From assembly GCF_988243305.1 (NCBI RefSeq), contig NZ_OZ547136.1: a DNA stretch of 64,000 nt. One strand, 5' to 3'. Each line of letters starts with the position of its first letter. The stretch's first letter is position 1. Shown here piece by piece: positions 7,880 through 38,815 of this stretch. The translations under genes and the position numbers were made by a program. The notes below the pieces were generated by a model, which searched no databases, was not told where the DNA came from, and worked only from the letters and a program-made list of their open reading frames with translations.

Positions 7880-9286
7880 TTAATCCAGCCATTCAGTATG
7901 GAACACACCTTCTTTATCAATGCGCTTATAAGTATGCGCACCGAAATAGTCACGCTGTGCCTGGATCAGGTTCGCAGGCAGAACAGCGGCACGGTAGCTA
8001 TCGTAATAGGCAACCGCAGCAGCGAAGGTCGGAACCGGGATACCGTTCTGTACTGCATAAGCAACGACATCACGCAGCGCCTGCTGGTAGTCATCGGCAA
8101 TTTGCTTGAAGTACGGAGCCAGCAGCAGGTTAGCGATCTGCGGATTTTCGGCATAAGCATCGGTGATTTTCTGCAAGAACTGCGCACGAATGATGCAACC
8201 AGCACGGAAAATCTTCGCGATTTCGCCGTAGTTCAGATCCCAGTTGTACTCTTCAGACGCTGCGCGCAGCTGAGAGAAACCCTGAGCGTAAGAAACGATT
8301 TTGCCCAGATACAGAGCACGACGAACTTTTTCGATGAACTCACCTTTGTCGCCAGCTGGCTGCGCTTGCGGGCCAGAGAGAACTTTAGATGCGGCAACAC
8401 GCTGCTCTTTCAGAGAAGAGATATAACGTGCAAACACAGACTCGGTAATCAGCGACAGCGGTTCTCCGAGATCAAGCGCGCTCTGGCTGGTCCATTTACC
8501 GGTACCTTTGTTAGCCGCTTCATCCAGGATCACATCAACCAGGTAGTTACCGTCTTCATCTTTTTTGGTGAAGATGTCTTTGGTGATGTCGATCAGGTAA
8601 CTACTCAGTTCACCGTTATTCCACTCGGTAAAGGTCTGTGCCAGTTCTTCGTTAGAGAGATTCAGGCCGCCTTTCAGGAGAGAATAGGCTTCAGCAATCA
8701 GTTGCATATCACCGTATTCAATACCGTTGTGAACCATCTTCACATAGTGACCCGCGCCATCAGCACCAATATAGGTAACGCACGGTTCGCCATCTTCAGC
8801 AACGGCGGCGATTTTGGTCAGGATCGGAGCAACCAGTTCATAGGCTTCTTTCTGCCCACCAGGCATGATGGAAGGCCCTTTCAGCGCCCCCTCTTCACCG
8901 CCGGAAACACCGGTACCGATGAAGTTAAAACCTTCGGCAGAAAGCTCACGGTTACGACGAATGGTGTCCTGGAAGAAGGTGTTACCACCATCAATGATGA
9001 TGTCACCTTTATCGAGGTATGGCTTGAGAGAATCAATAGCAGCATCCGTGCCTGCACCTGCTTTCACCATTAACAGGATGCGACGAGGCGTTTCCAGAGA
9101 TTCAACGAACTCTTTCACCGTATAGTAAGGAACCAGTTTCTTGCCTGGATTTTCGGCAATCACTTCTTCCGTCTTCTCACGGGAGCGGTTGAAAATAGAG
9201 ACGGTATAACCACGGCTTTCGATGTTGAGCGCAAGGTTGCGCCCCATCACTGCCATACCGACGACGCCGATCTGTTGCTTTGACAT
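7880..9286 (-). CDS. gnd: 6-phosphogluconate dehydrogenase, decarboxylating
   Basis: 468 aa ORF, N-terminal [16 protein letters not shown]-binding motif. Confidence 0.95.
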
Positions 9287-9448
9287 TGTTTACTCCTGTC
9301 AGGGGTGGTCACCGCCGAGTGTGCGGCTTAAATGTGGTATAGATGTTAACTCACTCATAGAGATGGTGAATAGCATTACCTTTGCGATACCACACTGAAT
9401 ATCTCATCTTTTCCGTCTTTTAAAACCTATTTATATGAATTTACTCAA

Positions 9449-10819
9449 TTACTTATTCAGTAACTCAAGGATAAGTTTTGTCTTTTCTTCCATCAGCGGC
9501 ACATCACCGCGCGATTCCACATTCAGGCGCACCACCGGTTCGGTGTTGGAGGAGCGCAGGTTAAAGCGCCAGTCGGCAAAGGTCATGCTGATGCCATCGG
9601 TACGATCCACCGCCAGCGCCTCGCGGCTAAAGTGCTGTTCGACGCGGTTAATCGCCTCAACGGGTTGCGCCAGTTTGCTGTTGATCTCACCGCTTGCCGG
9701 AAACGCTGCCATCCGGTCGCGCACCAGTTCGCCCAGCGTTTTTCCTTTCAGGCACACCAGTTCGGCTACCAGCAGCCACGGGATCATGCCGCTGTCGCAG
9801 TAAGCGAAATCACGGAAGTAATGGTGAGCGCTCATTTCGCCACCATAGATGGCGTCTTCCTTGCGCATACGTTCTTTAATAAAGGCGTGTCCGGTTTTCG
9901 ACATCACCGGAGTGCCGCCCGCGGCGGTCACCACATCAACGGTATTCCAGGAGAGACGTGGATCGTGGATGATCTTCGCGCCGGGATTTTTTTCGAGGAA
10001 CGCTTCTGCCAGCAGGCCGACAATGTAATAGCCCTCGATAAACTGCCCTTTTTCGTCAAACAGGAAGCAGCGGTCAAAATCGCCATCAAAGGCAATGCCC
10101 ATATCCGCTCCGTGTTTGATGACCGCATTGCGGGTGTCGTCGCGACATTCCGGCAGCAGCGGATTAGGAATACCGTTGGGGAAATTGCCGTCCGGCGTGT
10201 TGTGTACTTTGATTAATTCCACCGGTGCGCCGAGGGCTTTAAATCGGGCTTCAATGGCGTCCACCACCGGACCCGCCGCGCCGTTCCCGGAGTTAATCAC
10301 CAGCTTGAGCGACGTGAGGTTTTTGACGTTGATATAACCGAACAGGTGCTCAACGTAAGCGTCACGCAGATTGATTTGTTGATAGCGACCGCGTTTGGTT
10401 TCATCGACGGGAGGAAAGTCGTTGGCTTCTGCCAGACGCTGGACATCGCGTAGTCCGGTATCACCGCTGATCGGGCGAGCCCCCTCGCGAACCAGCTTCA
10501 TGCCGTTATAATCCATCGGATTATGGCTGGCGGTGACTTCAATGCCGCCATCCACGCCGAGATGGAACGTGGCGAAATAGATTTCTTCGGTGCCGGACAT
10601 GCCAATATCCAGCACATCGACGCCCGCATCCTGTAAACCTTTCGCCAGCGCCAGTTTTAAGGTTTCGCTGGTGAGGCGGGCATCACCGCCTAACACAATG
10701 GTTTTCGGTTTGAGAAATTCGCCATAGGCGCGACCAATGCGCCACGCAATATCTTCATTCAGTTCTTCGCCTAATTTCCCGCGAATATCATAGGCTTTAA
10801 AGCAGGTTAATTTTTTCAT
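9449..10819 (-). CDS. manB: phosphomannomutase, O-antigen cluster copy
   Basis: 456 aa ORF; nearly identical over most of its length to the colanic acid copy at 31900-33270; diverges only in the last ~15 codons. Confidence 0.9.
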
Positions 10820-10843
10820 ATAAAAACCTTACCAATAATAAAA

Positions 10844-11602
10844 TTATTTATGCGCAAATAATTGCATTAGTTTTGATATTTTTCTGATAATGATAGCAAT
10901 TTTCCAATTTACATTATGGTTTTTCATAACTTCTACAATTTCCTTTGTACTTGATATCGCGTTATCAATTCTGGTACTTTCCCCACCCAATCTCATCTTT
11001 ACAAATACTTGAGGAACATAAATAACTTTAATATCATCACGTTTCAAAATCCTGACCATCTGATCATAGTCTGCAGCAATCCTATAGGATAAATCAAAAT
11101 ATCCATCGTCTTTATATAATTCCCTCCTCATATAGAAAGATGGATGCGGTGGTGCCCAGCCTAATGATAGCTTAGAACGTTTAAAAGGACCACTACGCCA
11201 GTATCGTTTGATTATATCAATTTGGTTTTTTTCGAAAAAAACCAAATCACCGTATACAACATCCGCTTTTGTCTCATGGAAACGGCTTACAATAGTTTCA
11301 ATAATATCAGGTCTTGCTAAAAGGTCATCAGAATGAACGAATCCAATAATATCTCCCGTAGATAAATTTATACCTTTATTTAAAGCATCATAGATACCGT
11401 TATCGCTTTCTGATAGACATTTGGTTACTCTTGTTGATACTTCGTTAATTAGTTTTAACGTATTATCTGTAGAACCACCATCAATAATTATATACTCTAT
11501 ATCTTTATAGGTTTGCAACTCTATTGACTCTAAAGTATCCCTTAAAGTCTTTTCACTATTATAAGTCACTGTAATAATACTGACTTTCATTTTAACATCC
11601 AA
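10844..11602 (-). CDS. glycosyltransferase, family 2-like
   Basis: 252 aa ORF; N-terminal SIITVTYN...DGGSTD motif typical of GT-A fold; AT-rich; start may be the internal Met at MKVSIIT. Confidence 0.75.
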   Translation of the reverse strand: MDVKMKVSIITVTYNSEKTLRDTLESIELQTYKDIEYIIIDGGSTDNTLKLINEVSTRVTKCLSESDNGIYDALNKGINLSTGDIIGFVHSDDLLARPDIIETIVSRFHETKADVVYGDLVFFEKNQIDIIKRYWRSGPFKRSKLSLGWAPPHPSFYMRRELYKDDGYFDLSYRIAADYDQMVRILKRDDIKVIYVPQVFVKMRLGGESTRIDNAISSTKEIVEVMKNHNVNWKIAIIIRKISKLMQLFAHK

Positions 11603-11673
11603 TAATAATCATAATTAAATAACGTCAGTACCGCATTACGAATAATAATGTTGCATTAGTATCCAGCATCATT

Positions 11674-13074
11674 TTAGATTCTAACAACATCATCTTCATC
11701 CAAGTAAACACCTGAACGTACCTCAATAATCTCCAAAGGGATCTTTCCTGGATTCTCAATAAAATGAGGTACACCTATTGGTATATAAGTTGATTCATTT
11801 TCAGAAACAAGAAATATTTCATCTTCATAATGGACTTTTGCTGTTCCAGAAACAACAATCCAATGCTCAGTACGATGGTAATGAATCTGTTTAGCAGTTT
11901 TATGTCCAGGATGAATAACGACATGTTTAACCTCAAATCGAGATCCTTCCGCTATAGAGTCATGACTGCCCCATGGCCTAAATATTTCACGATGCTGCAG
12001 ATATTCCGTACGGTTATTAACTTTAAGTTTTTCTACAATATTTTTTACCTGTTGAACTTTATCTTTATGCGCAACGAGAATAGCATCTTTAGTTTCAACA
12101 ACTACTAAATCTTTAACTCCTACTACACCAATTAATCTATGTTGTGAGTAAAGATAACTGTCAGAAGAATCATGAATTAATACATCTCCTCTAATTGCAT
12201 TTCCACTTTTATCTTTTCTGCTAATTTCCCATAATGCAGACCAAGAACCAACATCGCTCCAGTGGGCATTTAATGGAACTACCACAGCCTCTGTTGTTTT
12301 CTCCATAACAGCGTAATCAATGGATTCTTCAGGGCAACAACTAAATGAGTCATTATCTATACGGATAAAATCAAGATCTTGTGTAGAGGACTTCAATGCT
12401 TGTTGGCATATTTTTAGTATGTCTGGTCTAAATTTATTCAACTCATCAATAAACACAGAAGCCCTAAACATGAATATTCCACTATTCCAAAGATAATCTC
12501 CATCTTCAAGATATTTTTTGGCCACATCTAGCTCAGGCTTTTCAACAAAAGCAGAAACTTTAAAACCATATTCATTTAAATTTTCTCCGGTTTTTATATA
12601 GCCATATCCAGTTTCGGGTTTGGTTGGCACAATACCAAAAGTTACCAGCTTACCTTCCTCTGCAAATTCTTTTGCAGCCAATATTGACGATATAAAGCGC
12701 TTTTGGTCTTGTATTTCATGATCGGCTGCTAGTACAAGCAGTATTGGATCCTCACCTGATGAAATCGCTTTAAGAGCAGCAAGCGCAACTGCGGGGGCAG
12801 TATTACGACCTACCGGCTCTAGTAAAATGCCACTATTCGCTAAATTTACATTACGCATCTGTTCTGCAACGATAAAACGATGAACTTCATTACAAATAAC
12901 CAGAGCAGGACGATGTTCAACCCCTTCAAGCCTTCTTAAGGTCTCTTGTAGCATAGTCAAACGACTAGTTAACGACAGGAATTGCTTCGGATATAGTGTT
13001 CGAGAAAGTGGCCACAATCTAGTTCCAGAACCACCGGCCATTACAACAGGAAGTAGCATATAAATAACCTTCAC
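11674..13074 (-). CDS. manC: mannose-1-phosphate guanylyltransferase, O-antigen cluster copy
   Basis: 466 aa ORF; [19 protein letters not shown] nucleotidyltransferase motif; paralog of the colanic acid copy but divergent and AT-rich. Confidence 0.88.
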   Translation of the reverse strand: MKVIYMLLPVVMAGGSGTRLWPLSRTLYPKQFLSLTSRLTMLQETLRRLEGVEHRPALVICNEVHRFIVAEQMRNVNLANSGILLEPVGRNTAPAVALAALKAISSGEDPILLVLAADHEIQDQKRFISSILAAKEFAEEGKLVTFGIVPTKPETGYGYIKTGENLNEYGFKVSAFVEKPELDVAKKYLEDGDYLWNSGIFMFRASVFIDELNKFRPDILKICQQALKSSTQDLDFIRIDNDSFSCCPEESIDYAVMEKTTEAVVVPLNAHWSDVGSWSALWEISRKDKSGNAIRGDVLIHDSSDSYLYSQHRLIGVVGVKDLVVVETKDAILVAHKDKVQQVKNIVEKLKVNNRTEYLQHREIFRPWGSHDSIAEGSRFEVKHVVIHPGHKTAKQIHYHRTEHWIVVSGTAKVHYEDEIFLVSENESTYIPIGVPHFIENPGKIPLEIIEVRSGVYLDEDDVVRI

Positions 13075-13526
13075 TTAAAATAATTTTTTGTGTACTGATG
13101 AACTGAGGAATTAGCTAACAATTCGGCTATATCGAACCAATTGTAAGTACTATGTTGTAGTGTTGGATAGTTAATTTGATGTGGCATCAAACTAATCTCA
13201 TATCCGTGTACGACATAATGAGTTGAAAAACAAGTCCCAGAAAAATTGTCGCTGTAGAAATGTTCATAAATCCCAAGAAATTTTGCTTCATTAATGCTAA
13301 TTTGAACACCCAATTCTTCAAAAGTAACTCTTTTGAATGCGTTCTCGAAAGACTCATCTTTAAGAATCCGTCCCCCCGGCACAAACCAATAATTTTGTGC
13401 TGGACGATTAAGGCGCTGACCAAGCAGCGCCTTACCATCTTCGTTTCTTATAATAAGGTCTATCGAGATTAGTGGAGTATGTTCAACTATTGATTTAAAT
13501 AACTCTGTTTCTAATCTCTTGTTCAA
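13071..13526 (-). CDS. gmm: GDP-mannose mannosyl hydrolase (Nudix)
   Basis: 151 aa ORF, Nudix-like, between fcl and manC as in the colanic acid cluster. Confidence 0.8.
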   Translation of the reverse strand: MNKRLETELFKSIVEHTPLISIDLIIRNEDGKALLGQRLNRPAQNYWFVPGGRILKDESFENAFKRVTFEELGVQISINEAKFLGIYEHFYSDNFSGTCFSTHYVVHGYEISLMPHQINYPTLQHSTYNWFDIAELLANSSVHQYTKNYFK

Positions 13527-13528
13527 TA

Positions 13529-14494
13529 TTAACTCCTAAATGAGTCAAGATTATTTATAAACCATTTATATGTTAATTCTAGTCCTTGTTTTAAATTATA
13601 ACGATATTTCCAGCCCAAATTCTCAAGGCGTGTAACATCCATAAGTTTACGAGGCGAACCATCTGGTTTTGTTATATCAAAAACAATTTTTCCATCATAG
13701 CCAACAACTAAAGCCATTGTTTCTGCCATTTCACGTATGGAACAATCAACACCAGTACCTACGTTAATATGAGATAACATTGGTTGAGTATTTTTTTTAT
13801 AAATTTCATCATCAAGCTCCATCACATATACTGATGCAGCTGCCATATCATCAACATATAAAAACTCGCGTTTTGGAGTTCCCGTTCCCCAGACAACCAC
13901 TTCATTTAAACCAAGTTCCTTTGCTTCATGAAAACGCCGCATAAGCGCTGGAATTACATGTGAGTTATTGGGATGAAAATTATCATTCATACCATATAAG
14001 TTAGTAGGCATTACACTGCGATAATCACATCCATATTGGCGATTATAAGATTCACATAGCTTTATACCTGCTATTTTGGAAATAGCATAAGGCTCATTAG
14101 TAGGCTCAAGAGTTCCCGTCAAAAGTGCAGATTCTTTCATTGGCTGTTCTGCAAACTTTGGATAGATACAACTTGACCCTAAGAATAATAGTTTCTTTAT
14201 GCCCGCTTTATAAGATGAGTGAATAATATTGCTTTCAATGAGAAGGTTCTGATAAATAAATTCAGCTGGAAAAGTGTTATTAGCATGAATTCCTCCTACT
14301 TTTGCTGCTGCAAGGTAAACCTGATCTATTCTCTCTTGCTCAAAAAAACATTCAACATCCTTTTGAACTGTCAAATCGAGTTCTTTGTGAGTTTTGACAA
14401 TTAACTCAACATCATTACGTGCTAATAATTGACGACAAATAGCAGAACCAACCATCCCACGATGTCCAGCCACAAAAATTCGCTTCTTGGTCAT
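13529..14494 (-). CDS. fcl: GDP-L-fucose synthase
   Basis: 321 aa ORF; N-terminus [13 protein letters not shown] matches the colanic acid Fcl paralog. Confidence 0.88.
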
Positions 14495-14497
14495 ACT

Positions 14498-15619
14498 TTA
14501 ACGCTCCAAAGAGACTGCCACGTCAAAACCATGGCTTTTAAGAAGTGCATGCTGTTTAGCTTTTTCTAAATCACTAGCCACCATTTCTGCACACATTTCT
14601 TCAACTGTAATCTCTGGCTCCCAACCCAAGACATTTTTTGCTTTTGTTGGATCACCAAGAAGAGTTTCAACTTCTGCTGGTCGAAAATAACGAGGGTCAA
14701 CGCGAACAATAACATCACCAATATTAACACCAACGGCGCAATCTGATGTTTTATTTACAACCATTGCAACCTCATCAACACCAGTACCGGAAAACTCAAG
14801 TTCAAGTCCAACTTCTTTAGCAGACATACGGACAAATTCACGTACAGATATTTGTTTGCCAGTGGCAATAACAAAGTCTTCTGGCTGGTCTTGTTGAAGC
14901 ATCATCCATTGCATACGAACATAATCTTTCGCATGCCCCCAATCACGTAAAGAATCCATGTTGCCAAGATATAAGCATTTTTCTATTCCCTGCGAAATAT
15001 TAGCTATAGCACGTGTGATTTTACGTGTTACAAACGTTTCCCCACGACGTGGGGATTCATGATTGAACAAAATACCGTTGCATGCATACATTCCATAAGA
15101 CTCACGATAGTTTACAGTGATCCAATATGCATACAGTTTAGCTACGGCATAAGGTGAACGAGGATAGAACGGCGTTGCCTCTTTTTGTGGAACTTCCTGA
15201 ACTAATCCATACAATTCAGAGGTTGACGCCTGATAAAATCGGGTTTTTTTTTCTAATCCCAAAAAACGAATAGCTTCCAATAATCGTAAAGTACCTATAG
15301 CATCAACATCAGCTGTATATTCTGGGGATTCGAAGGAAACAGCTACGTGACTCATTGCTCCGAGGTTGTAAACTTCATCAGGTTGAACTTCAGATAATAT
15401 ACGAGTCAAATTAGAAGTATCTGTTAAGTCACCATAATGAAGGTGTAATTTTAAATTAATATTATGGGGATCTTGGTATATATGGTCAATACGTCCAGTA
15501 TTAAAAATAGAAGAACGTCGTTTTATTCCATGAACCTCGTAACCTTTATTTAGTAGAAACTCTGCCAAATATGAACCATCTTGACCAGTAATGCCAGTAA
15601 TTAATGCTTTCTTTGTCAT
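14498..15619 (-). CDS. gmd: GDP-mannose 4,6-dehydratase
   Basis: 373 aa ORF; [20 protein letters not shown]-terminus, highly similar protein to the colanic acid Gmd, but AT-rich DNA. Confidence 0.9.
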
Positions 15620-15629
15620 AAAATTATTC

Positions 15630-16664
15630 CTACAGTAGTTTCTTGTAAATATCGATAGTTTTGTCAGTACATTTTTTCCAAGAAAAACGTTGTGCTTGAG
15701 ATAAACCTTTCTTAATAATTTGATTTCGATTTCTATTTATAAATGATATACCATCAATAAGGTTGCTTATACTTAACTCATCCATCAAATAACCGGCGTC
15801 ACCTGCAACCTCTGGTATTGAGGAGTGATTATACGCAATGAATGGGCATCCTGCCCTCATTGCTTCTAAAAGAGGAATACCAAATCCTTCATAACTTGAC
15901 GGATAAATAAGAGAATGAGCTTGATTAAATTTTAGATTCAACTCTTGCTCAGTTAAATATGGATAATGAATATATCGATATGGTATATATTTATCAAGTA
16001 AAAATTTCTCAGCCTTTCCCAAAGGGCCTCCACCTACAATATATAGTTTGAACCCCTCTAATTTGTTTATTGCTTCAACTGCAAGTTGAAAGTTTTTATA
16101 TGCTTTTCTCGAACCAATAAAAAGCATGAAATTATCATCATCGTTATAATTAACGTTTTTTAATTCATAAAAATTATCAGACACCCCATTGTGAATGATT
16201 TCGATTTTACTTTCAGGTACTGGACAATACCTCAACAAATCATTGGCAGTATTTTCTGAAATGCAAATTATTTTATCACTGTTTTTTATAGCATTGTACT
16301 TCTGATGACAATGAACGTATTTACGTAAACCTGACATATATTTTTCATATGTAAAGTCATGTACTGTTGTTATGTTTTTATTTTTTTTGCCCTTACTAAA
16401 TCTATAATAACTAGAATGTAATAGAGAGTTTTCAGGAATATCAACAGCTCGATACCTTTCAAGAAAGCGAGGATATAGATTAATATAACGTCCAGGTTGT
16501 CGCACATCTTCACTTATAAATTGACAGCCTGTATTCTCATAGTTTAATATCGTATATTCAATATTTGTGGCTTTTATCGCTTTTATTATTTGATTATAAT
16601 AAACAGAAATGCCACCGTATGACTGGAGATTATATATAATACCATCCAAATATAACATAGGCAC
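15630..16664 (-). CDS. glycosyltransferase, GT-B fold (family 1/4-like)
   Basis: 344 aa ORF; C-terminal [19 protein letters not shown] motif typical of GT4 retaining transferases. Confidence 0.75.
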
Positions 16665-16673
16665 CTTTTATAT

Positions 16674-17687
16674 TTAATTGTATCCATCAGGATTTAGCGT
16701 ATGCCATTTCCACGCAGAAGAAAGCATTTCGGTCAAATCTCGCCTAGCCTTCCAGTCCAGTTCTTTTTCAGCTTTGGAAACATCCGCCCAACATTCTGCA
16801 ACATCGCCGCTTCGGTTAGGGCCAAAACTATAATTAATATTTTTCCCAATAATTGATTGAAATGTTTTTATTACTTCTAATACAGAATATCCTCTACCCG
16901 TACCTAAGTTATATATTTTATAATTTCCTCCTTTGCCAAACATTTTAAATGCTGAAATATGCCCCTCAGCTAAATCATTTACATGAATATAATCTCTGAT
17001 ACCAGTCCCATCAGGCGTTGGATAGTCATGACCATAAATAGTAAGCGCAGGTAATTTACCTAAAGCAACATTCATCATATATGGAACTAAGTTAGCAGGA
17101 GTACCTCTGGGATTTTCACCTATTAACCCAGACTCATGCGCCCCCACTGGATTAAAATATCGCAAAATAATCACATCTAATTTAGGGTTTGCCAGAGAAG
17201 CATCTTTTAATATAACCTCGGAGTAATATTTACTGGTCCCGTATGGATTCGTTGTTTCACCTATACGACATTTTTCATTGATAGGTATCGTTTCTGGAAG
17301 ACCGTACACCGTAGCAGATGAGCTAAAGATAATTTTATTTACATGAAAGATCTTCATTAACTCTAACAAATTTAAAAGCCCAACAATATTATTCATATAA
17401 TAACGTATAGGACTTTGAACTGATTCTGAGACAGACTTAAGGCCTGCAAAATGTAATACTTTAGAGAATGTGTGATTCGTGAATATAGTCTTTAATTCTT
17501 TTTTGTCCAATAAATCTACCTTATATGCTCTGATTTTCTTACCACTAAGCTTTGAAATGACTTTGATGATATCTTCTGTAGAATTAGAAAAATTATCTAT
17601 GATGACAACGTCTTCATTCTGCTCCAATAATGACAGAACAGTATGGGACCCAATATATCCAGCTCCACCCGTAACTAATATTGTCAT
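16674..17687 (-). CDS. NAD-dependent sugar-nucleotide 4-epimerase (GalE family)
   Basis: 337 aa ORF; VTGGAGYIGSH Rossmann motif and YGTSK catalytic motif; substrate not determinable from sequence. Confidence 0.8.
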   Translation of the reverse strand: MTILVTGGAGYIGSHTVLSLLEQNEDVVIIDNFSNSTEDIIKVISKLSGKKIRAYKVDLLDKKELKTIFTNHTFSKVLHFAGLKSVSESVQSPIRYYMNNIVGLLNLLELMKIFHVNKIIFSSSATVYGLPETIPINEKCRIGETTNPYGTSKYYSEVILKDASLANPKLDVIILRYFNPVGAHESGLIGENPRGTPANLVPYMMNVALGKLPALTIYGHDYPTPDGTGIRDYIHVNDLAEGHISAFKMFGKGGNYKIYNLGTGRGYSVLEVIKTFQSIIGKNINYSFGPNRSGDVAECWADVSKAEKELDWKARRDLTEMLSSAWKWHTLNPDGYN

Positions 17688-17696
17688 AAAAACACC

Positions 17697-19019
17697 TTAT
17701 TTGAATTTAAAAAAAACTATTTGCATCGATAATCTCAAGCATATGTATGCCATAAAGAACATACCTAATTCAAATATCATAGAAGAAAACTCTGAGCGTT
17801 GGAAATTGATAGATTGGGAAAGAAAAACAAGATAAAGAAAATAGTTGCTCCCAATTAACCTTTCCATTATATATGAATAACCACATAAAATGGCAGGAAA
17901 TATAATTACACCATAATAATTATAATTAATAAAAGCTTCTGTAAAAGGAGTAAATGCATATCCCATCATAAACTCTTGACTTGGCAAATAAACTTCCTTT
18001 GCAAATTGAATAGCTAATGTGTCTGGCTTTAATCCCATAAATAATTCTTTTGGTATAAAGTTTACAATGAACTGAAGATAGGATATACCAAAAAATTGAG
18101 TCTGATAATGTATCGAAGAATAATATTGAAGTGTAGATATAGGATAAATAAATTCACCCAAAGCATTCAATAATCTTATGCTTGATTCGACATTATAATC
18201 TGAACGATATATCCCAAAAAGTATAATCGTTGATACAAATAGAATACTGAACAACGCTACTTTTAATGGTATCTTAAATTTAGCTTTATAAAGTGATAGC
18301 AATACAGCCATAATAAAAGATAAAGCAATTTCTCGTCTTGAACCTACCAGCATTAAAGTATAAAAATATAAAAGCACAGGTATGCTGTATATTACGAAAC
18401 TATAATTTGTGAGACTTTTTTTTACTATCTTTAAATCAAGTAAAATCCAAAAATAAGCAATAACCACATATTTCAGATACCATCCACTTTGACTTACCGA
18501 ATTAATTAACTCTAGGCGAGTACTTTCGCCCAAAGCATTCAGAGAAAGATTTCTTGATTGATATAGAAAAAATAATGATATTAACCATGCTATGCATGAT
18601 GGAATAAATAGATTATAGTTATTGTCATAGTTATATTGTTTGTTTAAAAGAAATATATTGATACCGTGAGGCCTAATCAAACTAATCGATGCAACTATAC
18701 ACCAAACAGCAACACAATATAAGAATGAAGTGTTGATTATATTATTTTCAACATTAAATACATTAACACCAAAAAAATAATACAACAAAAAAGACACAAA
18801 AAAATAAAAAGGCGATAATATTATAAATATTCCATCAAACCATACCCACATTCGATTATATACAAAAAAAAGAATTGCAATTGTAAATATTACAGATAAA
18901 AACCAAATTAGGATAGCATCAATTTCAACTTTGACAGAAGTGCTCAATACAGCAATCATTATCAACCCAATAAAGCCATAAAATTGAGCCAATACCAGTT
19001 TGTATTGTTTATAAATCAT
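17697..19019 (-). CDS. wzy: putative O-antigen polymerase
   Basis: 440 aa, very hydrophobic multi-spanning ORF, very AT-rich, within O-antigen cluster; assignment by topology and context only. Confidence 0.6.
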   Translation of the reverse strand: MIYKQYKLVLAQFYGFIGLIMIAVLSTSVKVEIDAILIWFLSVIFTIAILFFVYNRMWVWFDGIFIILSPFYFFVSFLLYYFFGVNVFNVENNIINTSFLYCVAVWCIVASISLIRPHGINIFLLNKQYNYDNNYNLFIPSCIAWLISLFFLYQSRNLSLNALGESTRLELINSVSQSGWYLKYVVIAYFWILLDLKIVKKSLTNYSFVIYSIPVLLYFYTLMLVGSRREIALSFIMAVLLSLYKAKFKIPLKVALFSILFVSTIILFGIYRSDYNVESSIRLLNALGEFIYPISTLQYYSSIHYQTQFFGISYLQFIVNFIPKELFMGLKPDTLAIQFAKEVYLPSQEFMMGYAFTPFTEAFINYNYYGVIIFPAILCGYSYIMERLIGSNYFLYLVFLSQSINFQRSEFSSMIFELGMFFMAYICLRLSMQIVFFKFK

Positions 19020-19854
19020 ATTTTAACAATCCCGTCCAGAAACCGATTAATCTGTACATATATAATTTTTTTTGTTTTTTTAAAACGATACCAAAAAATG
19101 ATTTTACTGTGATCCTGAAAATTTCCAATAGTAATAAATAACGAGATTTCACTAAATACTTCTTTATCACGACACCATATCCAACTGCATATTTTCTGTA
19201 TTTTTCTGGTATCCCTTCACAATATAAATCATTATCGTGATAAACTCCAAATATAGGTTGAAAACATACTCTAAACCCAAGAGATTTCAGCCGAAAAAAT
19301 AACTCCGTTTCTTCGGATCCACCGAATAAAGTACCAACACCTAACCTTTCATCAAAATATATATTATCGAGTTTATGAGTAAAAATAAAAGTACCCACAC
19401 TTAGTGACGATTTAATTATTTGATTATAACCCATTTCCTTTTTAGTTTTAGGATAAACTCTATTGGCATAAGATTTCATTGTTTGAAAATCTAATACAGG
19501 AACTGAAAGAACGGTTTCTTTTTTGATATTTGATTGAATCACCTTCTCAAAAAAATCAGGAGCATAAAAAGCATCATCATCACAGAACCCAATAACATTA
19601 CCACTGCATAGTTTAAGCCCTTGATTACGAGCAGTTGAAAGTGGTACTTTATTTGATTTAACCAACTTGTATTTTATATTTTTTGCGTGTTTTAAAAATA
19701 ATTGCTCAATTATGATATCATCAGTCTGATCAATAAATATAATTTCTAGGTTTTTGTACGTACTGCTAGCTATGCTATTTAGCAGTCGTTCAATTTCTTT
19801 ATCCCTTCCACCTTGAGTTGTGCCTATCAAACTAATTTTATAAAAGTTATTCAT
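19009..19854 (-). CDS. putative glycosyltransferase
   Basis: 281 aa ORF in O-antigen cluster, GT2-like N-terminal region, overlaps wzy by 11 nt. Confidence 0.6.
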   Translation of the reverse strand: MNNFYKISLIGTTQGGRDKEIERLLNSIASSTYKNLEIIFIDQTDDIIIEQLFLKHAKNIKYKLVKSNKVPLSTARNQGLKLCSGNVIGFCDDDAFYAPDFFEKVIQSNIKKETVLSVPVLDFQTMKSYANRVYPKTKKEMGYNQIIKSSLSVGTFIFTHKLDNIYFDERLGVGTLFGGSEETELFFRLKSLGFRVCFQPIFGVYHDNDLYCEGIPEKYRKYAVGYGVVIKKYLVKSRYLLLLEIFRITVKSFFGIVLKKQKKLYMYRLIGFWTGLLKYDL

Positions 19855-19855
19855 A

Positions 19856-20776
19856 TTAATATCCTTTTTTTAAGATTGAATTAATCTTTATTTTACAATA
19901 ATAAGCAAATTTTCTAAGAAAAACACCATTTATATATTTAATCTTTACTCCTAACTTAGAAAAAATAATAAAATACACCTTAAAATAATAACAAATAGCA
20001 TTAAGAAAACGATGACTTGATTGCGGAAACAAAACCATCCCTAGCTCATCTTTATCGAGAATAATCCCCTGTTTTTTTAAATTACCAATGGCAATAGATA
20101 TGTGAATATCTGCTTGTATATGCTTTTTTATATTCGATATTTGATTTCCGTGATTTCGATAATAAAGCAAGGGTATATTTATATTACAGAATTTTCCGTA
20201 GTTTGCTAATCTACTCCAAAACTCATAATCTTCAGCATATTGGTAGCGTGGCTTATAATATAGGCATTCTTTTTTTATAATGCTGCTTCTCATCATTACA
20301 GTTGGATGAGCAAAACAACTGCCCACCAACAATCCTATTTTACAGGCTTCGTCTGAGTTAGGCATTTTTATAATTTTTCCGCTATTAACAGCTGACTCAA
20401 AAACTTTGATATTAGTTCCACAACACGCTATTTTTTGATCTGCATCCATTATTTCAACTTGTAATCTCAACCTTTCTCTGTGAGCAATATCATCAGCATC
20501 CATTCTAGCAATATACACTCCCGTAGCCATGTCTAATAATTCATTTAAAGTAGCTACTATCCCTTTATTTTCTCTATGCTTAATTTTGAATATCGCGGGA
20601 TATTTATTTTTATATTCATCAAGTATCTTTTGTGTACCATCCTGCGAGCCATCATTGATGATGATAATTTCAAATATTTTATATGTTTGTTCCAATATAC
20701 TGTCAATGCATGCGCCTAAGTATTTTTCAGCATTATATACCGGTATTATAACGGATACTTTGTTTTTATTAATCAT
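19856..20776 (-). CDS. glycosyltransferase, family 2
   Basis: 306 aa ORF; VSVIIPVYNAEKYL...INDGSQD motif. Confidence 0.78.
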   Translation of the reverse strand: MINKNKVSVIIPVYNAEKYLGACIDSILEQTYKIFEIIIINDGSQDGTQKILDEYKNKYPAIFKIKHRENKGIVATLNELLDMATGVYIARMDADDIAHRERLRLQVEIMDADQKIACCGTNIKVFESAVNSGKIIKMPNSDEACKIGLLVGSCFAHPTVMMRSSIIKKECLYYKPRYQYAEDYEFWSRLANYGKFCNINIPLLYYRNHGNQISNIKKHIQADIHISIAIGNLKKQGIILDKDELGMVLFPQSSHRFLNAICYYFKVYFIIFSKLGVKIKYINGVFLRKFAYYCKIKINSILKKGY

Positions 20777-20782
20777 AATATA

Positions 20783-22054
20783 TCATACTTTGTTTTTATT
20801 AAGCAGATAACAGATCGTTACTATTAAGGAGAACATATATAATGCTTGAGATATTATATACGCTTTAAAAACATAAGAAATTTGAGCATTTTCGACGTAG
20901 CATAACGAATACTTACTTAATATACAATATACAGACCATTGTAACACTTCTAACACTATATATTCTTTTACGAATGCTTTGCTAATCAGCAAATAACCAA
21001 GCACCCATGCAATTATCTTAAAAAAATCTCCAATTAGTTGATAAACTATAACATCAACAATAGGAACGAACTCGTGTGTAAATAGAATATTTACTATCAA
21101 ACCGCGAAATGTATACATCAAGACTGAAGATATACAAACTAACGGAACCAAATACAAATAACAAACTTTTATTTCATTAAGCAATTCTGAACGGTTAGAT
21201 GCACTTGAAAACCTTGGAAAGAAATATACCCCCAATGTAGTCGTAATTAACATCAAATAGACTGAACTTATTCTATTAACAGCATCCCACAACCCAGCAT
21301 ACTCAATATTTATTGATGTTATGATTTCATTTCTCACATATAACGTACTAACTGGCACTAATATAGCTGAAGTGACTGTCATTAAAGAAAAAATTATGAT
21401 CCGTTTTAATATTGAAATATCAATTCGATTGCAATTATTAACATAGTATTCTCTTAAATATTTTTTTGAGTAAAAAAAAGTCACAAAAAACAATATAGCT
21501 TGATTTGAAACTACAGCAATCAATGCTCCTCTCATACCAAAAGAGATTGTCAATATAAAGGCGTATATTGCAGATATTAAACTCGATATGATATTAATCC
21601 ATATATAATTTTTAATAAATGACAATCCATTTAACATAGAAAGAATTATATTATTCCATGCATATAAAATAACACTCCCTCCCAAGAAATAAATTGCGAT
21701 GCTTACTTCATCATTAGAATTGAAAAATTGTTCGATAATTATATTTTTAAAGATAATTATGATAACAGCGGTTATAAATCCCATTATAGTAGACAAATAA
21801 ATTGCATTAATCCAAAAACTCCAGATTTTTTCCTTATTACTATTCTTATACTCTGACGTATACTTAACAATACTCGTTGAAATAGCTTGTGATGGCGCAA
21901 CCATAGCTATATTAAGGATATTTTGGATTTGGCCAATAAGTGCATATCCAGACGTACCTAAATATATTGCGAATACTTTATTAAGTCCAAGTAGAGTTGC
22001 TATTTTGACAAATACAGAAAGGCCATTAAGAATAAAGACATTATATACTTTCAC
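20783..22054 (-). CDS. wzx: putative O-antigen flippase
   Basis: 423 aa multi-spanning membrane ORF, first gene after the JUMPstart element. Confidence 0.65.
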   Translation of the reverse strand: MKVYNVFILNGLSVFVKIATLLGLNKVFAIYLGTSGYALIGQIQNILNIAMVAPSQAISTSIVKYTSEYKNSNKEKIWSFWINAIYLSTIMGFITAVIIIIFKNIIIEQFFNSNDEVSIAIYFLGGSVILYAWNNIILSMLNGLSFIKNYIWINIISSLISAIYAFILTISFGMRGALIAVVSNQAILFFVTFFYSKKYLREYYVNNCNRIDISILKRIIIFSLMTVTSAILVPVSTLYVRNEIITSINIEYAGLWDAVNRISSVYLMLITTTLGVYFFPRFSSASNRSELLNEIKVCYLYLVPLVCISSVLMYTFRGLIVNILFTHEFVPIVDVIVYQLIGDFFKIIAWVLGYLLISKAFVKEYIVLEVLQWSVYCILSKYSLCYVENAQISYVFKAYIISQALYMFSLIVTICYLLNKNKV

Positions 22055-22116
22055 AGTTCACCTAACATATTAAGTAGGTTATGATAACAAAACTCATATT
22101 TAATTATACCATAAAT

Positions 22117-22160
22117 ATAAACCACGCTACCGCCCCTGGCTATACAGCTACCAGAGCACT
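22117..22160 (-). promoter_or_regulatory. JUMPstart element with ops site upstream of the O-antigen operon
   Basis: plus-strand cacgctaccgcc at 22123-22134 is the reverse complement of the ops sequence GGCGGTAGCGTG; same motif context recurs upstream of wza. Confidence 0.8.
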
Positions 22161-22407
22161 GCGTGTGTGTCTACAATGTAACGAGCGTTTCATGCTCGCA
22201 ATAAACAAAAAACCAAAAGCTAAATTATCTTACTAATCAGCTCTGAAAACAAGGAAATGTGTAAAAAAAGTCCTATTGCTGACTTGTTATTATCCCGAAT
22301 ATTTATAAATCAATAATAGCAGGAAGACTCGCAACAAGTTACTTTGCCTGCTAATCTTCACAACTATTACAGTCTTTTCGCATCTGTTGCATCCGATTCG
22401 ATTTTCA

Positions 22408-23304
22408 TTATTCCCTTAACAGCTTCTCAATCCCTTTACGGAACTTCGCCCCTTCTTTTAGGTTACGCAGTCCATACTTCACAAACGCTTGCATATAACC
22501 CATTTTTTTACCGCAGTCGTAGCTGTCACCGGTCATCAGCATGGCATCAACAGACTGTTTTTTCGCCAGTTCGGCAATAGCATCAGTCAGTTGGATACGT
22601 CCCCATGCACCTGGCTGAGTGCGTTCCAGTTCCGGCCAAATATCGGCAGAAAGCACATAACGGCCCACGGCCATGATGTCTGAGTCCAGCGTCTGCGGCT
22701 GATCCGGTTTTTCGATAAATTCAACAATGCGGCTGACTTTACCTTCGCGATCCAGCGGTTCTTTGGTCTGGATGACGGAGTATTCAGAGAGGTCACCCGG
22801 CATACGTTTTGCCAGCACCTGGCTACGGCCCGTTTCATTGAAGCGTGCAATCATGGCAGCAAGGTTGTAGCGTAGCGGGTCGGCGCTGGCGTCGTCGATC
22901 ACAACGTCTGGCAGCACCACGACAAATGGATTGTCACCAATGGCGGGTCGTGCACACAAAATGGAATGACCTAAACCTAAAGGTTCGCCCTGACGCACGT
23001 TCATAATAGTCACGCCCGGCGGGCAGATAGATTGCACTTCCGCCAGTAGTTGACGCTTCACGCGCTGCTCAAGGAGAGATTCTAATTCATAAGAGGTGTC
23101 GAAGTGGTTTTCGACCGCGTTCTTGGACGCGTGAGTTACCAGGAGGATTTCTTTGATCCCTGCAGCCACAATCTCGTCAACAATGTACTGAATCATTGGC
23201 TTGTCGACGATCGGTAGCATCTCTTTGGGAATCGCCTTAGTGGCAGGCAACATATGCATCCCAAGACCCGCTACCGGTATAACTGCTTTTAAATTCGTCA
23301 TCAT
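22408..23304 (-). CDS. galF: UTP-glucose-1-phosphate uridylyltransferase-like regulatory subunit
   Basis: 298 aa ORF, nucleotidyltransferase N-terminus, conserved position upstream of O-antigen cluster. Confidence 0.9.
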
Positions 23305-23542: not shown

Positions 23543-24538
23543 TTACTCAGAAACAAACGTTATGTCGTCTTTTTTGGCATGAACGAATTCATACTGCAGA
23601 GTTCGATCCAGACCTTGCGACAGCGTATACGGTGCCACAAAACCTGAAGAATGCACTTTCGTTGCGTCAAACTGTGTTGTTGCGCAGAATTTTTTCACGC
23701 GCACTGAGCTGACAGCGTATTTTTTGCCCGTAATTTTGCTCAGGATATCAAAACAATATCCACCCAGCATTCCTAGTGGGTAAGGCAAGTGCATAGAAGG
23801 GATCTTTTTGTTCAGGCTTTGTTCAACTTCAGCAACCAACTGGTTCATGTTCAGGTCTGGCTTATCAACGTAGTTATAAACCTCATAACCTGCGGCAACA
23901 TTCTTCAGTTTGTACTTGATAAACTCAACAATGTTTCCAACATAAGCCATGGACTTATAGTTAGTTCCTGCACCCACCATCATAAACTTGCCGCCAGCGA
24001 TCTGTTTCAGCAAGTTATAGACGTTACCGCGGTTGCGTTCACCGAAGATAACGGTAGGACGGATGATGGTTAATGAACGTTCTGTTGGTGCTTTGTTATA
24101 CCATTCACGCAGCACTTCCTCTGCCTGCCACTTACTTTTGCCGTAGTGGTTGAAAGGGTCGTGTGGATGGTTTTCGTCAGGGTTATGTTTGTTCAAACCA
24201 TAAACAGCAACGGAACTGGTAAAGATGATATTTTTAACGCCATTTTTTTCCATGGCCGCCAGCACATTGCGGGTACCCTGAACGTTGACATCATAATAGA
24301 GAGAAGTAGGGCTGACGTCATCGCGGTGTTCCGCTGCCAGTAGTACAACAGTGTCAAAACCAACTAATGCCTGGTCGAGTGCCTGTTGATCGCGAACATC
24401 GCCAATCTGTGTGATTTCTGGATAAAAGTGGCTCTGCTGTTTGTCCAGGTTCTTGATATTAAAGTCAGCAATTGCCGTTTCAAGTAGTCGGGTTCCTACG
24501 AATCCGGAAGCTCCTATGAGCAAAACGTTATCGTTCAT
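23543..24538 (-). CDS. gne: UDP-N-acetylglucosamine 4-epimerase-like protein
   Basis: 331 aa ORF; N-terminal LLIGASGFVG Rossmann motif; lies between wcaM and galF as recalled for gne in some E. coli lineages. Confidence 0.75.
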   Translation of the reverse strand: MNDNVLLIGASGFVGTRLLETAIADFNIKNLDKQQSHFYPEITQIGDVRDQQALDQALVGFDTVVLLAAEHRDDVSPTSLYYDVNVQGTRNVLAAMEKNGVKNIIFTSSVAVYGLNKHNPDENHPHDPFNHYGKSKWQAEEVLREWYNKAPTERSLTIIRPTVIFGERNRGNVYNLLKQIAGGKFMMVGAGTNYKSMAYVGNIVEFIKYKLKNVAAGYEVYNYVDKPDLNMNQLVAEVEQSLNKKIPSMHLPYPLGMLGGYCFDILSKITGKKYAVSSVRVKKFCATTQFDATKVHSSGFVAPYTLSQGLDRTLQYEFVHAKKDDITFVSE

Positions 24539-24695: not shown

Positions 24696-26090
24696 CTACT
24701 CCCTCCGTTCCGGCAATCTAAAGTTAATCTTTTCCACATTAACAATATGGTGATTAATCCTGTCGATATCGACGGAGCTTTGCCCTTTTTCATTCACCGC
24801 ATGAACATTTGCAAGAGACAGTAGTGTTTCTTTTTTCGCCATAAATACGCCGCGAACGTCTTTGCGCATGTCAAAGTTCATGCTCAATGCGGGTCCAACT
24901 GAGGATTCCTGCATCACCTTGATATTTCGCATAAAAAGATGTTGCGGTTTGTTGTGTAACTCCAGCGACGCACGCTTCATCTCAATGTTAGTCAGTGCCA
25001 CAAAGGAGACGGCATTCCCGGCAGAGATTTGGATGCCGCGCAATTTGTAAGCAAGGTGGGTATTATCCAGTTGAATATTATTCACTCGGAAATTTTGCGG
25101 TATCGAGAGATATGTGCCTTTAATTACCCCATAGCCGATTAACATTCCGGCGCTATTAATCATTTCAATATTATCAATCACGAAATTGTCACAACCGTAA
25201 ATAGCGACCGTCGCGTTATCAATACCTGCTTTCTTACTGAAATCCGGCGTGATATTGCGGGCTTTGATATTACGAATAACAAAATGTTTACCATTTTCAA
25301 CATGGATCAACTGCCGACAATCTGATCCCGTGATATTCGCCACGACAAAGTTTTTCACTGCCTGGTCTTCCGGGTAATTATTATCATAAGTGCTTCCCGC
25401 AAGACCTATGCCGATGCCCCAGTTGATTTTGCCGTTGGTACAGTTGATGCGCTCGATGACATGGTCGGAGATCAAAATATCACGGTCGTTAATCGCCACG
25501 TTCCATTCAATGGCGTCGCCCTGTAAGTCGCTGAACTTACAGTTGGTGATGTTGGCACCGATAATCTGGTTATGAAATCCCTGGCGTAAGATGGCGTAAT
25601 TAGCGTGGCTAACGGTCAGGTTATCGATGGTCAGGTTGCGCATGACCCGTTTGTTTTTGCCGCCGATATAAATCTGCGTTACCGGGCCAAAGCCGCTCAT
25701 AGTCAGCCCTTTGATGGTGCAGTCAGAGCCGCGCACATCCAGGGTGATGTTATGCATACTGCCGCCCTCCTCCCCTGTCACCTGGCTGCCGTCCTCTAAG
25801 ACAAACCGCCCTCTGCCGTTGCCGCGCAGGCTTCCAAGAATGTGTAACGTTTTGCCAGCAGGAATGAAGATGCCGGTGTTGATATTGTCACAAACCAATC
25901 CGCCAGGCACGACGACTGTTTGCCCTTCGCTGAAGGCTTGTTTAAATGAGGCGATCCAGTCGTGTGGATTATAATCGTTAATGTTAACGCTTGTTCGGGC
26001 GGGAAGTGCACGGGCGAAAGGGGTATGGAGGAAGGCAAGCGCCGAGCTTACCGTCAGGAAGGTGCGTCGGGAGAGTTTTTTAAATGGCAT
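24696..26090 (-). CDS. wcaM: colanic acid biosynthesis protein WcaM
   Basis: 464 aa ORF; N-terminal twin-arginine-like signal (SRRTFL); last gene of colanic acid operon. Confidence 0.88.
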
Positions 26091-26100
26091 ACGTTCTCCT

Positions 26101-27321
26101 CTATAAAGCCTGTAACAAGCTGGCGAGTTCTCGATTAATCACCTGCTGGTTAAAATCGTGTTCGACTTTTTCGCGCGCACGTTTGACAACCGGAGCCAGT
26201 TCGTCGGTGTCCAGTTGGCTAAACGCCGCCAGTCGTTGCGCCAGTGCGCGAGCATCGTTCTCAGGCACCAGCCAGCCGGATTTATCGGCCTCCACCAGTT
26301 CCGGTATTCCGCTATGCAGAGTAGAAACCACCGGAATGCCGACCGCCATCGCTTCCATTAGCGCCACCGGAATACCTTCCATATCGCCATCCGCACCCGT
26401 TACCGATGGCAACAAGAAAACATCCGCGTTGTCGAGCATCGCTTTCACTTCATGGCTCGGTTTAAAGCCAGGCATCTCTACCACATCTTCCAGTTGATAT
26501 TGTTCGATGAGGGTGCGCAGGCGTCGTTCCCACGGGCCAATGCCGAGAATGCGATAGCGAAATGCAACGCCCTGCTCTTTCAACTGCCGGCAGGCTTCGA
26601 TCGCCACATGCAGGCCTTTTTTCTCGGTTAAGCGTGCGACGGAGATGATTTCCAGCGGCGTTGCGGGCGCTTTCACCGGACGCGGGCTAAAGCGCGTCAT
26701 GTCCACGCCCATGCGCGATACGGCGATTTTTTCCCTCGGGCAGCCCATTTTTTGCAGCCTTCCGGCCCACAAATCGCTTATCGGTAACATCAGGTCGCCA
26801 CGGCGAAACAGTTGTTGATATTCGGGAGTGTAATGGTTGAGCACTTCCCGACTGGAAATATCAATTCCGTGGAAAATGGTGGCAATTTTGCCGCGAATGA
26901 CACCCAGTTCGCGGAGTTTTGCTGCGGTTACCCCCGCAGGGCCAAAATGAGCGATAAAGACATCGGCATGAAGCGGTGTTGCGACCTGGCCGCAAATGGC
27001 AGACAAAATCAGGTTCCGCGACTCAGCACCATAGCGTTTGAGGTTGAGCGCCTGCCAGGTATTTTTACGATGAATGCCGCGTAACGTCTGGCTGGCGCGG
27101 TGGCGCAGTTTCGCTACTTTGCCCGCAGGTTCGTCCTGTAACCAACGGGTTCTTGCGGCAAGGTTGTATTTCGTCCATGCCGCGTGGGTGTTTTGTGTGT
27201 CGCCTTGTTGCAGCGCGACAATCTCCACCTCAAAGCCCATATCAATAAACGCAGTGATTTGGTTAAGAACGAAGGTTTCCGACGACAGCGGAAATTTCAA
27301 TAAGAAGAAGCCGACCTTCAT
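26101..27321 (-). CDS. wcaL: colanic acid glycosyltransferase
   Basis: 406 aa GT-B fold ORF, cluster position. Confidence 0.88.
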
Positions 27322-28598
27322 TTCACCTCCCCGATGCGTTCCAGTACAGACTGTACCATCTGCATTCCTGTCTGACGCTCACGACTGACGGCTTCACTAA
27401 GTCGCGCATTCAGCGCCGGAAGCTGGCCTAAGGTATCCGCAACCATCGCTTGCAGGCTGCCGTCTAATAAATGACGGATATCAATTGCCATCTCTGGTAG
27501 CCCCAGTTGTTGCATAATCCCGGCGGATTTATGTTCATAGTTGATGGCAATCGCCGGAGTAGCAAAGTTCATTGAGATAATGGCGGAGTGCAGGCGCGTA
27601 CCGACGGTGAGTTCACAGGCTCCGAGAATTTTGCCCATTTCCAGATCGTTGAGTTCATCCATCACCACGTGGTAACGGGCAGGATCGCTGATGTGCTGGC
27701 GAAGATTGAGCGCCACCATGCGGTCGTCTTTGTTATAGCTGTCGATGCCCGTACAGGTGGATAGCGCAATCACCTGATACCCTTCATCGAGAATGCGATT
27801 GACCACTCCGGCAAAGGCTTTTTCATACGCTTGTTGAGTGGTGCCGAGACGTTTGTCGAACGGTGCCAGTTCGCGCAGGGTAATTGCCACCGTTTTCTGT
27901 TGTGCGGCAACGTCCAGCCAATGTTGAACGGCATAGCTGGCGGTGAATTCTTCTGTGTGGTGATCGACCAGCCACGCGGTATCGACGCCATGTTCCACTT
28001 TTGCGGTAGTGATATTGCTGCGTTTCATCAAATTAAGGCTGACCGATTCGCGCAGGATCAGCGCGTCGCAATGACCAAAGACATAGTTCGCCAGTTGGTT
28101 AAATTGCTCATCCTGGAACGGGCCGACGCTGTGACCAATCATAAACAGCGGCTTTTTCGCCATAAACGTGCAAAGTGCATGTTCAAACTGCGGCACGCCG
28201 TAGAGATCGACAAAAAACGATCCGCCGACCTGAATAATGGCGTCGTAACCTGACAGCAGGCGCACGAAGTCGGTGAATCCCTGGGCGATGGCGATATTAC
28301 GCAGCTTGCCAGTGTCGGTGACGCGTGAGAGCAATACCTGATGCTGGTAGCGGCGACGGAGGACTTTTTTAACGCGCCCGACAACGCCCGCCGCGCTGTT
28401 GTGTTGTTTCATTTGCAGGAACAGCGGATCGCCCATTACCGGGCGGTTGAGCAGCCAGGAAGAACTGACCGGATAGCGGCTCATCACGTCCACTTCGGCG
28501 TGTGGATTGAGGATGTTGATGGCATCAAGTAAGCCGCGCAAGATGGCGCTGTCGCCACGATTGCCGCAAGTGTGGTTGCCCAGAATAAGTAATTTCAT
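27318..28598 (-). CDS. wcaK: colanic acid pyruvyl transferase
   Basis: 426 aa ORF, cluster position. Confidence 0.88.
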   Translation of the reverse strand: MKLLILGNHTCGNRGDSAILRGLLDAINILNPHAEVDVMSRYPVSSSWLLNRPVMGDPLFLQMKQHNSAAGVVGRVKKVLRRRYQHQVLLSRVTDTGKLRNIAIAQGFTDFVRLLSGYDAIIQVGGSFFVDLYGVPQFEHALCTFMAKKPLFMIGHSVGPFQDEQFNQLANYVFGHCDALILRESVSLNLMKRSNITTAKVEHGVDTAWLVDHHTEEFTASYAVQHWLDVAAQQKTVAITLRELAPFDKRLGTTQQAYEKAFAGVVNRILDEGYQVIALSTCTGIDSYNKDDRMVALNLRQHISDPARYHVVMDELNDLEMGKILGACELTVGTRLHSAIISMNFATPAIAINYEHKSAGIMQQLGLPEMAIDIRHLLDGSLQAMVADTLGQLPALNARLSEAVSRERQTGMQMVQSVLERIGEVK

Positions 28599-28639
28599 TT
28601 TTTCCTCATAAATTTGATGCCAGGTGAGGCTGTGTTTGT

Positions 28640-28960
<321 letters not shown>

Positions 28961-28970
28961 AAACAGCAAC

Positions 28971-30449: not shown

Positions 30450-30450
30450 A

Positions 30451-31845: not shown

Positions 31846-31899
31846 CGTTGTTCCTGTTATTAGCCCCTTACCCGCAATGGGGTAAGGGAAGATCCGACA

Positions 31900-33270: not shown

Positions 33271-33339
33271 GTCGTTACCCTTTTTCAGGCAATAGTTGGC
33301 CCTGACCGAAGCGGCCAATTTTGTTTTTGTCGTTATTTA

Positions 33340-33550
<211 letters not shown>

Positions 33551-34996: not shown

Positions 34997-34998
34997 AA

Positions 34999-37666: not shown

Positions 37667-37668
37667 GC

Positions 37669-38790: not shown

Positions 38791-38815
38791 GTCTTATTCC
38801 TCTGTATTTTTGAAT

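Follow-up and report, generated by a model that had tools for sequence, protein, structure and literature searches.

A colanic-acid-type manB gene in the O125 O-antigen cluster of Escherichia coli, the allele pool that it appears to share with cpsG, and deletion between the two genes

Within the window analyzed here, a 64 000-nucleotide stretch of the E. coli chromosome (NCBI RefSeq assembly GCF_988243305.1, contig NZ_OZ547136.1), the his operon is followed by wzz, ugd, gnd, an O-antigen cluster, galF, gne and the wca genes for colanic acid, with asmA, dcd and udk beyond them. The polysaccharide genes are encoded by the minus strand. The genes at positions 10820–22400 match seven complete genomes at 99.8–99.9% identity, a typed O125ac strain is among these seven, and the wzx and wzy genes of these genomes are annotated as belonging to the O125 family; by these matches the O-antigen cluster is assigned to serogroup O125. 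Family scans of the cluster fit a Wzx/Wzy-type system and identify gmd, fcl, gmm, manC, several glycosyltransferases, and a GalE-like epimerase. Two genes for epimerases are thus seen in different parts of the window: a GalE equivalog in the O125 cluster (16674–17687) and, in the interval from wcaM to galF, a gne/gnu-type gene (23543–24538), counterparts of which in O11 and O157 are annotated as GlcNAc-PP-undecaprenol 4-epimerase.

The manB gene of the O125 cluster (9449–10819) is an intact open reading frame for a phosphomannomutase of 456 amino acids. It sits inside the O-antigen cluster, with gnd (7880–9286) on one side, across a 162-nt spacer (9287–9448), and on the other the O125 wzx and wzy genes and galF (22408–23304), which forms the other flank of the cluster. 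Directly upstream of manB is an AT-rich GDP-fucose module consisting of gmd, fcl, gmm, manC, and a GT2 glycosyltransferase gene (10844–15619), which is common to serogroup O11. The colanic acid cluster has a manB gene of its own, cpsG (31900–33270), which is also an open reading frame and lies between cpsB (33551–34996) and wcaJ (30451–31845). The initial annotation of this DNA described the two manB genes as direct repeats, and this is the case: both are on the minus strand, with 22 451 bp from start to start and 21 080 bp between them. The O125 part of this inter-repeat segment (10820–31899) contains genes for a GT2, manC, gmm, fcl, gmd, a GT4, a galE-like gene, wzy, two further GT2 genes, and wzx; its remaining genes are galF, gne, wcaM, wcaL, wcaK, wzxC, and wcaJ.

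Both manB and cpsG are 1371 nt (456 amino acids) in length and can be aligned without gaps. Across the first 1333 nt of the gene (9487–10819 in manB, 31938–33270 in cpsG) the ungapped alignment has 57 mismatches, an identity of 95.7%; in the remaining 3′ tail of manB, gene nt 1334–1371 (9449–9486), 17 of the 38 nt differ from cpsG and the protein tails differ as well. When identity is followed in 50-nt windows, it rises from chance level to 86–100% at the start codon and returns to chance past nt 1333, and the DNA flanking the two genes is at chance level on both sides. The sharp transition inside the 3′ end of manB that had been proposed in the initial annotation is therefore real, although it involves the last 12–13 codons and not the ∼15 that were suggested. 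Other details of that proposal need to be modified. The identity of the two genes is high, but ‘near-identical’ overstates it for a pair with 4.3% nucleotide divergence, a dS of 0.17, and nine amino-acid differences in codons 1–444. A proposed similarity in the 20 nt that precede the ATG amounts to 5 ungapped matches out of 20, which is chance level, and the similarity begins at the ATG.

Base composition also sets manB apart from the genes around it. The GC3 of manB, and that of its core, is 0.63, compared with 0.22–0.30 in all other O-antigen genes, and the paralogs shared by the O-antigen and colanic acid clusters have nucleotide identities of only 71% (gmd), 66% (fcl), 56% (gmm), and 64% (manC), in agreement with the earlier description of the other O-antigen genes as AT-rich and far more diverged. 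The final 39 nt of manB (9449–9487) are 28% GC, versus 54% in the matching stretch of cpsG. Both proteins match the NCBIfam model NF011943 ‘phosphomannomutase CpsG’ along its full length (residues 1–456 of 456), with 1047.7 bits for manB and 1046.1 bits for cpsG against a curated cutoff of 801, and the dN/dS between them is 0.05; these scores and this ratio identify both as intact, constrained phosphomannomutase genes. The features by which a colanic-acid-type manB is recognized, namely nucleotide identity to cpsG of at least about 93–95%, host-like GC content, and diverged, AT-rich neighbors, are all seen in the O125 gene. Residual sequence of another type at a gene end, the mark of a recombination junction, is also present in the form of the 3′ tail from nt 1334. 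Judged from its sequence, the body of manB is of the colanic acid (cpsG) type, with an AT-rich remnant at its 3′ end.

The junctions of manB were compared across serogroups. Apart from a few differences, O125, O11, O6, and O7 have in common the 3′ junction after nt 1333, the tail, and the 162-nt spacer that leads to gnd; this spacer is similarly conserved in two of the genomes with deletions that are described below. The tail is identical in the manB genes of O11, O6, and O7 and in the hybrid genes of the deletions. Among 5426 complete E. coli genomes, 444 contain the tail and spacer together at a coverage of at least 80%, and BL21(DE3) and ATCC 25922 are two of these. An origin of this junction in the present genome was rejected because it is common to the O11, O6, and O7 clusters and to these 444 genomes. 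In O157 and O75 the tails are different and the 3′ junctions are slightly earlier. The 5′ junctions also vary with serogroup: those of O125 and O11 are located no later than the ATG, and those of O6, O7, O157, and O75 fall within the first 10–35 nt; at the 5′ end of manB, no residual non-cpsG sequence is visible in O125 and O11, unlike in the other four serogroups. Since the junctions differ between serogroups, at both ends for O157 and O75, there must have been several replacement events. The O125 junction is likely to be old and to travel with the right-hand end of the cluster, because it is shared by O11, O6, and O7, and these comparisons place the replacement event that is relevant to O125 before the formation of the O125 cluster in its present form.

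Several searches were made for sequences related to the tail. An exact 31-nt pattern and a degenerate back-translation of the tail peptide each gave 0 matches in a collection with one genome per species. A distant blastn search of E. coli with the tail and spacer returned only cpsG-annotated genes with the same junction, with no native AT-rich manB among the matches listed, and for this reason it is solely from its composition and position that the tail is read as a remnant of the original gene. The O6 and O75 clusters have a manC as well as a manB of colanic-acid-like sequence, with the annotations cpsB and cpsG (loci L003 32695–35587, L006 32258–35150, and L008 22441–25318), so that homology with the colanic acid cluster is about twice as long; in O75, wzx lies between manB and gnd.

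The relationship of manB to cpsG alleles in other strains was assessed using megablast of manB against the 5426 complete E. coli genomes. Over nt 1–1333, cpsG alleles elsewhere are 95.0–96.8% identical to manB, and the 95.7% identity of the resident cpsG is thus unexceptional. In total, 5731 places in 4696 genomes were matched, and roughly 1000 genomes have two copies. No match to manB or cpsG was obtained by megablast in 730 of the 5426 genomes, and other genomes have up to six matching places; it is possible that cpsG has been lost or has strongly diverged in the former, or that the repeat has been amplified in the latter. For a direct comparison of alleles, both genes were taken from six further genomes (two O6 strains, O11, O7, O75, and O157), and the pool analysis covered 16 sequences and only seven two-copy genomes, from six serogroups. 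Among the 16 sequences there are 169 segregating sites in nt 31–1332, of which 141 are at third codon positions, and no fixed differences between manB and cpsG were found in this interval. The four-gamete test was failed by 1941 of 4371 informative pairs of sites, and the alleles are therefore heavily mosaic. The mean number of mismatches between manB and cpsG is 49.1 within genomes and 49.3 between genomes, with means of 47.1 for pairs of cpsG alleles and 46.9 for pairs of manB alleles. This lack of fixed differences, the equal divergence within and between genomes, and the heavy mosaicism point to both loci drawing on one species-wide mosaic allele pool.

These observations support an explanation in several steps, which we regard as a whole with considerable confidence. 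The sequence pattern suggests that cpsG-type sequence took the place of an original, AT-rich manB between the start codon and codon 444, by homologous recombination of the gene-conversion type between the two paralogs, and that only 38 nt of the old gene were left at the 3′ end. The overwriting would not have occurred in this genome, but would have produced an old junction that moves with the right-hand end of the O125, O11, O6, and O7 clusters. Subsequent exchange of manB and cpsG alleles, both between strains and between the two loci, would have given rise to a single mosaic pool that is ∼3.6% diverse, and the two genes in the window, 4.3% apart, would be two draws from it. Both copies encode intact phosphomannomutases under purifying selection. 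In the final step the two genes, as 1.33-kb direct repeats 21 kb apart, provide a substrate for unequal homologous crossing over.

A different balance between these processes is possible, though we consider it the less probable account: the diversity of manB might come mainly from strain-to-strain homologous recombination that uses manB and gnd as a conserved right flank, with exchange between the loci being rare and limited to a few founding events. Switching of O-antigens by recombination in the flanks is documented (PMC5359238), and the comparison of O125 with O11 contains a pattern of this kind. The module from gmd to the GT2 gene is 98.8% identical to that of O11-type genomes over 4803 nt, and in 200-nt windows its identity of 98–100% drops to 95–96.5% exactly at the start of manB and stays low through gnd. 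The drop fits a later replacement of manB; because it continues into gnd, it could equally be the product of strain-to-strain recombination with a breakpoint at manB and resolution in manB and gnd. The module that is shared between the two serogroups (10820–15500 in the window; 30900–35700 in the O11 locus L004) has its right boundary exactly at the ATG of manB and a sharp left boundary in the 5′ part of gmd, at ∼15300–15600, beyond which the serogroup-specific genes are only 55–60% identical.

Nucleotide diversity in the wider region bears on this question in two ways. Among six genomes, the colanic acid genes from wcaF to wcaM (24696–39364) are 2–3% diverse, increasing to 4–5% in wcaK, wcaL, and wcaM beside the O-antigen cluster, and a diversity of 2–5% across the whole region that increases towards this cluster favors recombination between strains. 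Within the same six genomes, however, the diversity of cpsG (3.5%) exceeds that of its neighbors cpsB (2.4%) and wcaJ (2.2%), a local peak that strain-to-strain exchange alone leaves unexplained, as it does the polymorphisms shared by manB and cpsG with no fixed differences between them. In this small sample of six genomes, the cpsG peak is compatible with input from a second locus.

The initial annotation attributed the colanic-acid-type sequence of manB to conversion by the colanic acid copy. The cpsG-type body with its AT-rich remnant upholds this in a general sense, but not with the resident cpsG as a recent donor. It is very improbable that the resident gene overwrote the O125 manB within this lineage, even though the high identity does not extend beyond the coding region and ends sharply on both sides, and gene conversion between manB and cpsG has been proposed for O157 (PMC3158064). 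The 57 mismatches between the resident genes (dS 0.17) make them no closer than a manB and a cpsG from separate genomes (49.3 mismatches on average, range 33–67), some foreign cpsG alleles are closer to manB, at up to 96.8%, and the junction is common to other serogroups and to the 444 genomes. Furthermore, the longest identical run between them, of 101 nt, is expected from random placement of 57 mismatches (P = 0.48), and no clustering of these mismatches into conversion tracts was found. The window pair thus has no excess similarity over between-genome pairs and no unusually long identical tract, and there is no sign of recent exchange between its own manB and cpsG. It is similarly improbable that cpsG was duplicated once, long ago, into an ancestral O-antigen cluster and that the two loci then diverged independently without exchanging sequence again: one 3′ junction in four serogroups does fit a single founding event for that group, but the absence of fixed differences, the equal divergence of manB–manB and manB–cpsG pairs, the pervasive four-gamete incompatibility, and junctions in O157 and O75 that differ at both ends and indicate several events all argue against it.

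Crossing over between direct repeats leads to deletion or duplication of the intervening DNA. An inversion, which had been suggested alongside deletion in the initial annotation, is not expected of two copies that share a strand. As in a typical substrate for deletion, manB and cpsG have the same orientation, on the minus strand, and long homology of high identity (95.7% over 1333 nt), with a perfect run of up to 101 nt. Unequal crossing over would remove 22 451 bp, made up of the inter-repeat segment and one copy of the repeat, and with them the whole O-antigen cluster together with galF, gne, and the genes from wcaM to wcaJ. The product would be a hybrid gene beside gnd, with the 5′ part of cpsG and the 3′ tail of manB, and the reciprocal product would be a duplication.

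The predicted recombinant was assembled as a query from the 5′ part of gnd, the spacer, the manB tail, the cpsG core, the cpsB–cpsG spacer, and the 3′ part of cpsB, and was used to search the 5426 complete E. coli genomes. End-to-end matches within ∼3.1 kb were obtained in four of them (NZ_LR536431.1, NZ_CP128888.1, NZ_HG994851.1, and NZ_CP069459.1). Annotation of these four has gnd, a single ‘cpsG’, cpsB, and wcaI onward, and they are without the O-antigen cluster, galF, and wcaM through wcaJ, exactly the set of genes that lies between the repeats in the window. In the two hybrid genes that were translated, those of NZ_LR536431.1 and NZ_HG994851.1, there is a cpsG-like start (MKKLTCF) and the manB tail at the end. 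The hybrid core of NZ_HG994851.1 is identical to an O6 manB, and its crossover is thereby located within a few dozen nt of the start of the gene. The proposal that the pair is a substrate for deletion is therefore supported, by the exact junction of gnd, hybrid manB, and cpsB in four of the 5426 genomes and by published cases in O14 and in the long-term evolution experiment. The deletion junctions are those of E. coli at large, as none of the four genomes is tied to an O125 parent. We infer that deletion depends on RecA. A count of all 70 genomes with at least 80% coverage of the query as deletions was rejected; only four are deletions, and the others listed have O75-type clusters, in which a colanic-acid-like manC–manB pair adjoins wzx and gnd.

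Other features of these regions were observed in the same comparisons. The genome NZ_LR536431.1 also has an IS3 insertion that splits ugd and an internal stop in wcaE (locus L001, 5618–8045 and 17248–17994), which points to further decay of surface-polysaccharide genes. The cpsB–cpsG spacer of the window (33271–33550) contains two tandem copies of a ∼90-nt REP/BIME-like element (GCCTGATGCGACGCTGCCGCGTCTTATCAGGCCTACAAATCC...), and this element explains why the recombinant query matched a median of 12 places in each genome. The length of the spacer varies between strains, at ∼101, 192, or 280 nt in the genomes compared.

Many of these properties are known from other serogroups. In O157, clusters that are otherwise near-identical vary most in manB, and this diversity has been attributed by Iguchi et al. 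(2011; PMC3158064) to gene conversion with the colanic acid gene cpsG; the original replacement of the O157 manB by cpsG is credited to Samuel et al. (2004), as cited in that paper. As in O125, the O-antigen manB of O157 is >95% identical to cpsG and the remaining cluster is AT-rich, and a similar picture was obtained here for an O157:H7 genome. It differs in its 3′ tail (...EKKTKALLKLLSE), in a 3′ junction ∼15 nt earlier, in a 5′ junction that begins MKSL..., and in having manC and manB with no glycosyltransferase gene between them.

In E. coli B (REL606/BL21), which is O7-derived, direct repeats that are 96% identical and ∼23 kb apart recombine, with loss of the O-antigen genes and of several genes for colanic acid. 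During the long-term evolution experiment, seven rearrangements between manB and cpsG (96% identical) were described by Raeside et al. (2014; PMC4173774), including a deletion of 23 293 bp, and the resulting chimeric cpsG–manB gene has been described in a 2026 preprint (bioRxiv 10.64898/2026.06.14.732165). The tail and spacer of BL21(DE3) are the same as those in the window (93% over 234 nt), as is the tail of the O7 genome. E. coli B differs from the window in having O7 genes between the repeats and a cluster that was already inactive, and the O7 manB differs from that of O125 in its 5′ end (MLTCF...) and its length of 1365 nt. For the O14 type strain, loss of the O-antigen cluster by recombination between two manB genes is stated in Liu et al. 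(2019; PMC7685785), in a passage citing Jensen and Reeves (2004). By gene order, the four genomes with a gnd–hybrid–cpsB arrangement have the deletion architecture of this strain, and the window differs from it in having the undeleted, parental configuration. In Salmonella enterica, many O-antigen manB genes were reportedly 93–99% identical to the colanic acid manB, with a diverged manC of low GC content (Jensen and Reeves, Microbiology, 2001). This is a different species from the E. coli genomes with which manB was compared here.

A manB of the colanic acid type, its origin by replacement or conversion, and deletions between manB and cpsG have thus already been published for O157, O7 and E. 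coli B, O14, and Salmonella; O125, along with O11, is one more example of a known phenomenon. The finding matters little as a discovery, and the small pool analysis is a quantitative restatement of it, although one that could be scaled up to measure rates of exchange between the two loci. A bolder proposal, which we regard as speculative and rather unlikely, is that manB and cpsG are in effect one panmictic locus across the species, with manB alleles continually feeding the diversity of cpsG, and that their homology is perhaps selected as a contingency switch. If the two do form a panmictic locus, frequent conversion between them would produce the local peak in cpsG diversity, and if the homology is a contingency switch, variants without O-antigen (of the O14/ECA type) would arise at high frequency. 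There are also practical consequences, since annotation pipelines label the O-antigen manB as ‘cpsG’, and short-read assemblies and variant callers will mishandle the 1.3-kb manB/cpsG repeat. For the biology of the organism, O125 strains are expected to yield deletion variants that are negative for O-antigen and defective in colanic acid.
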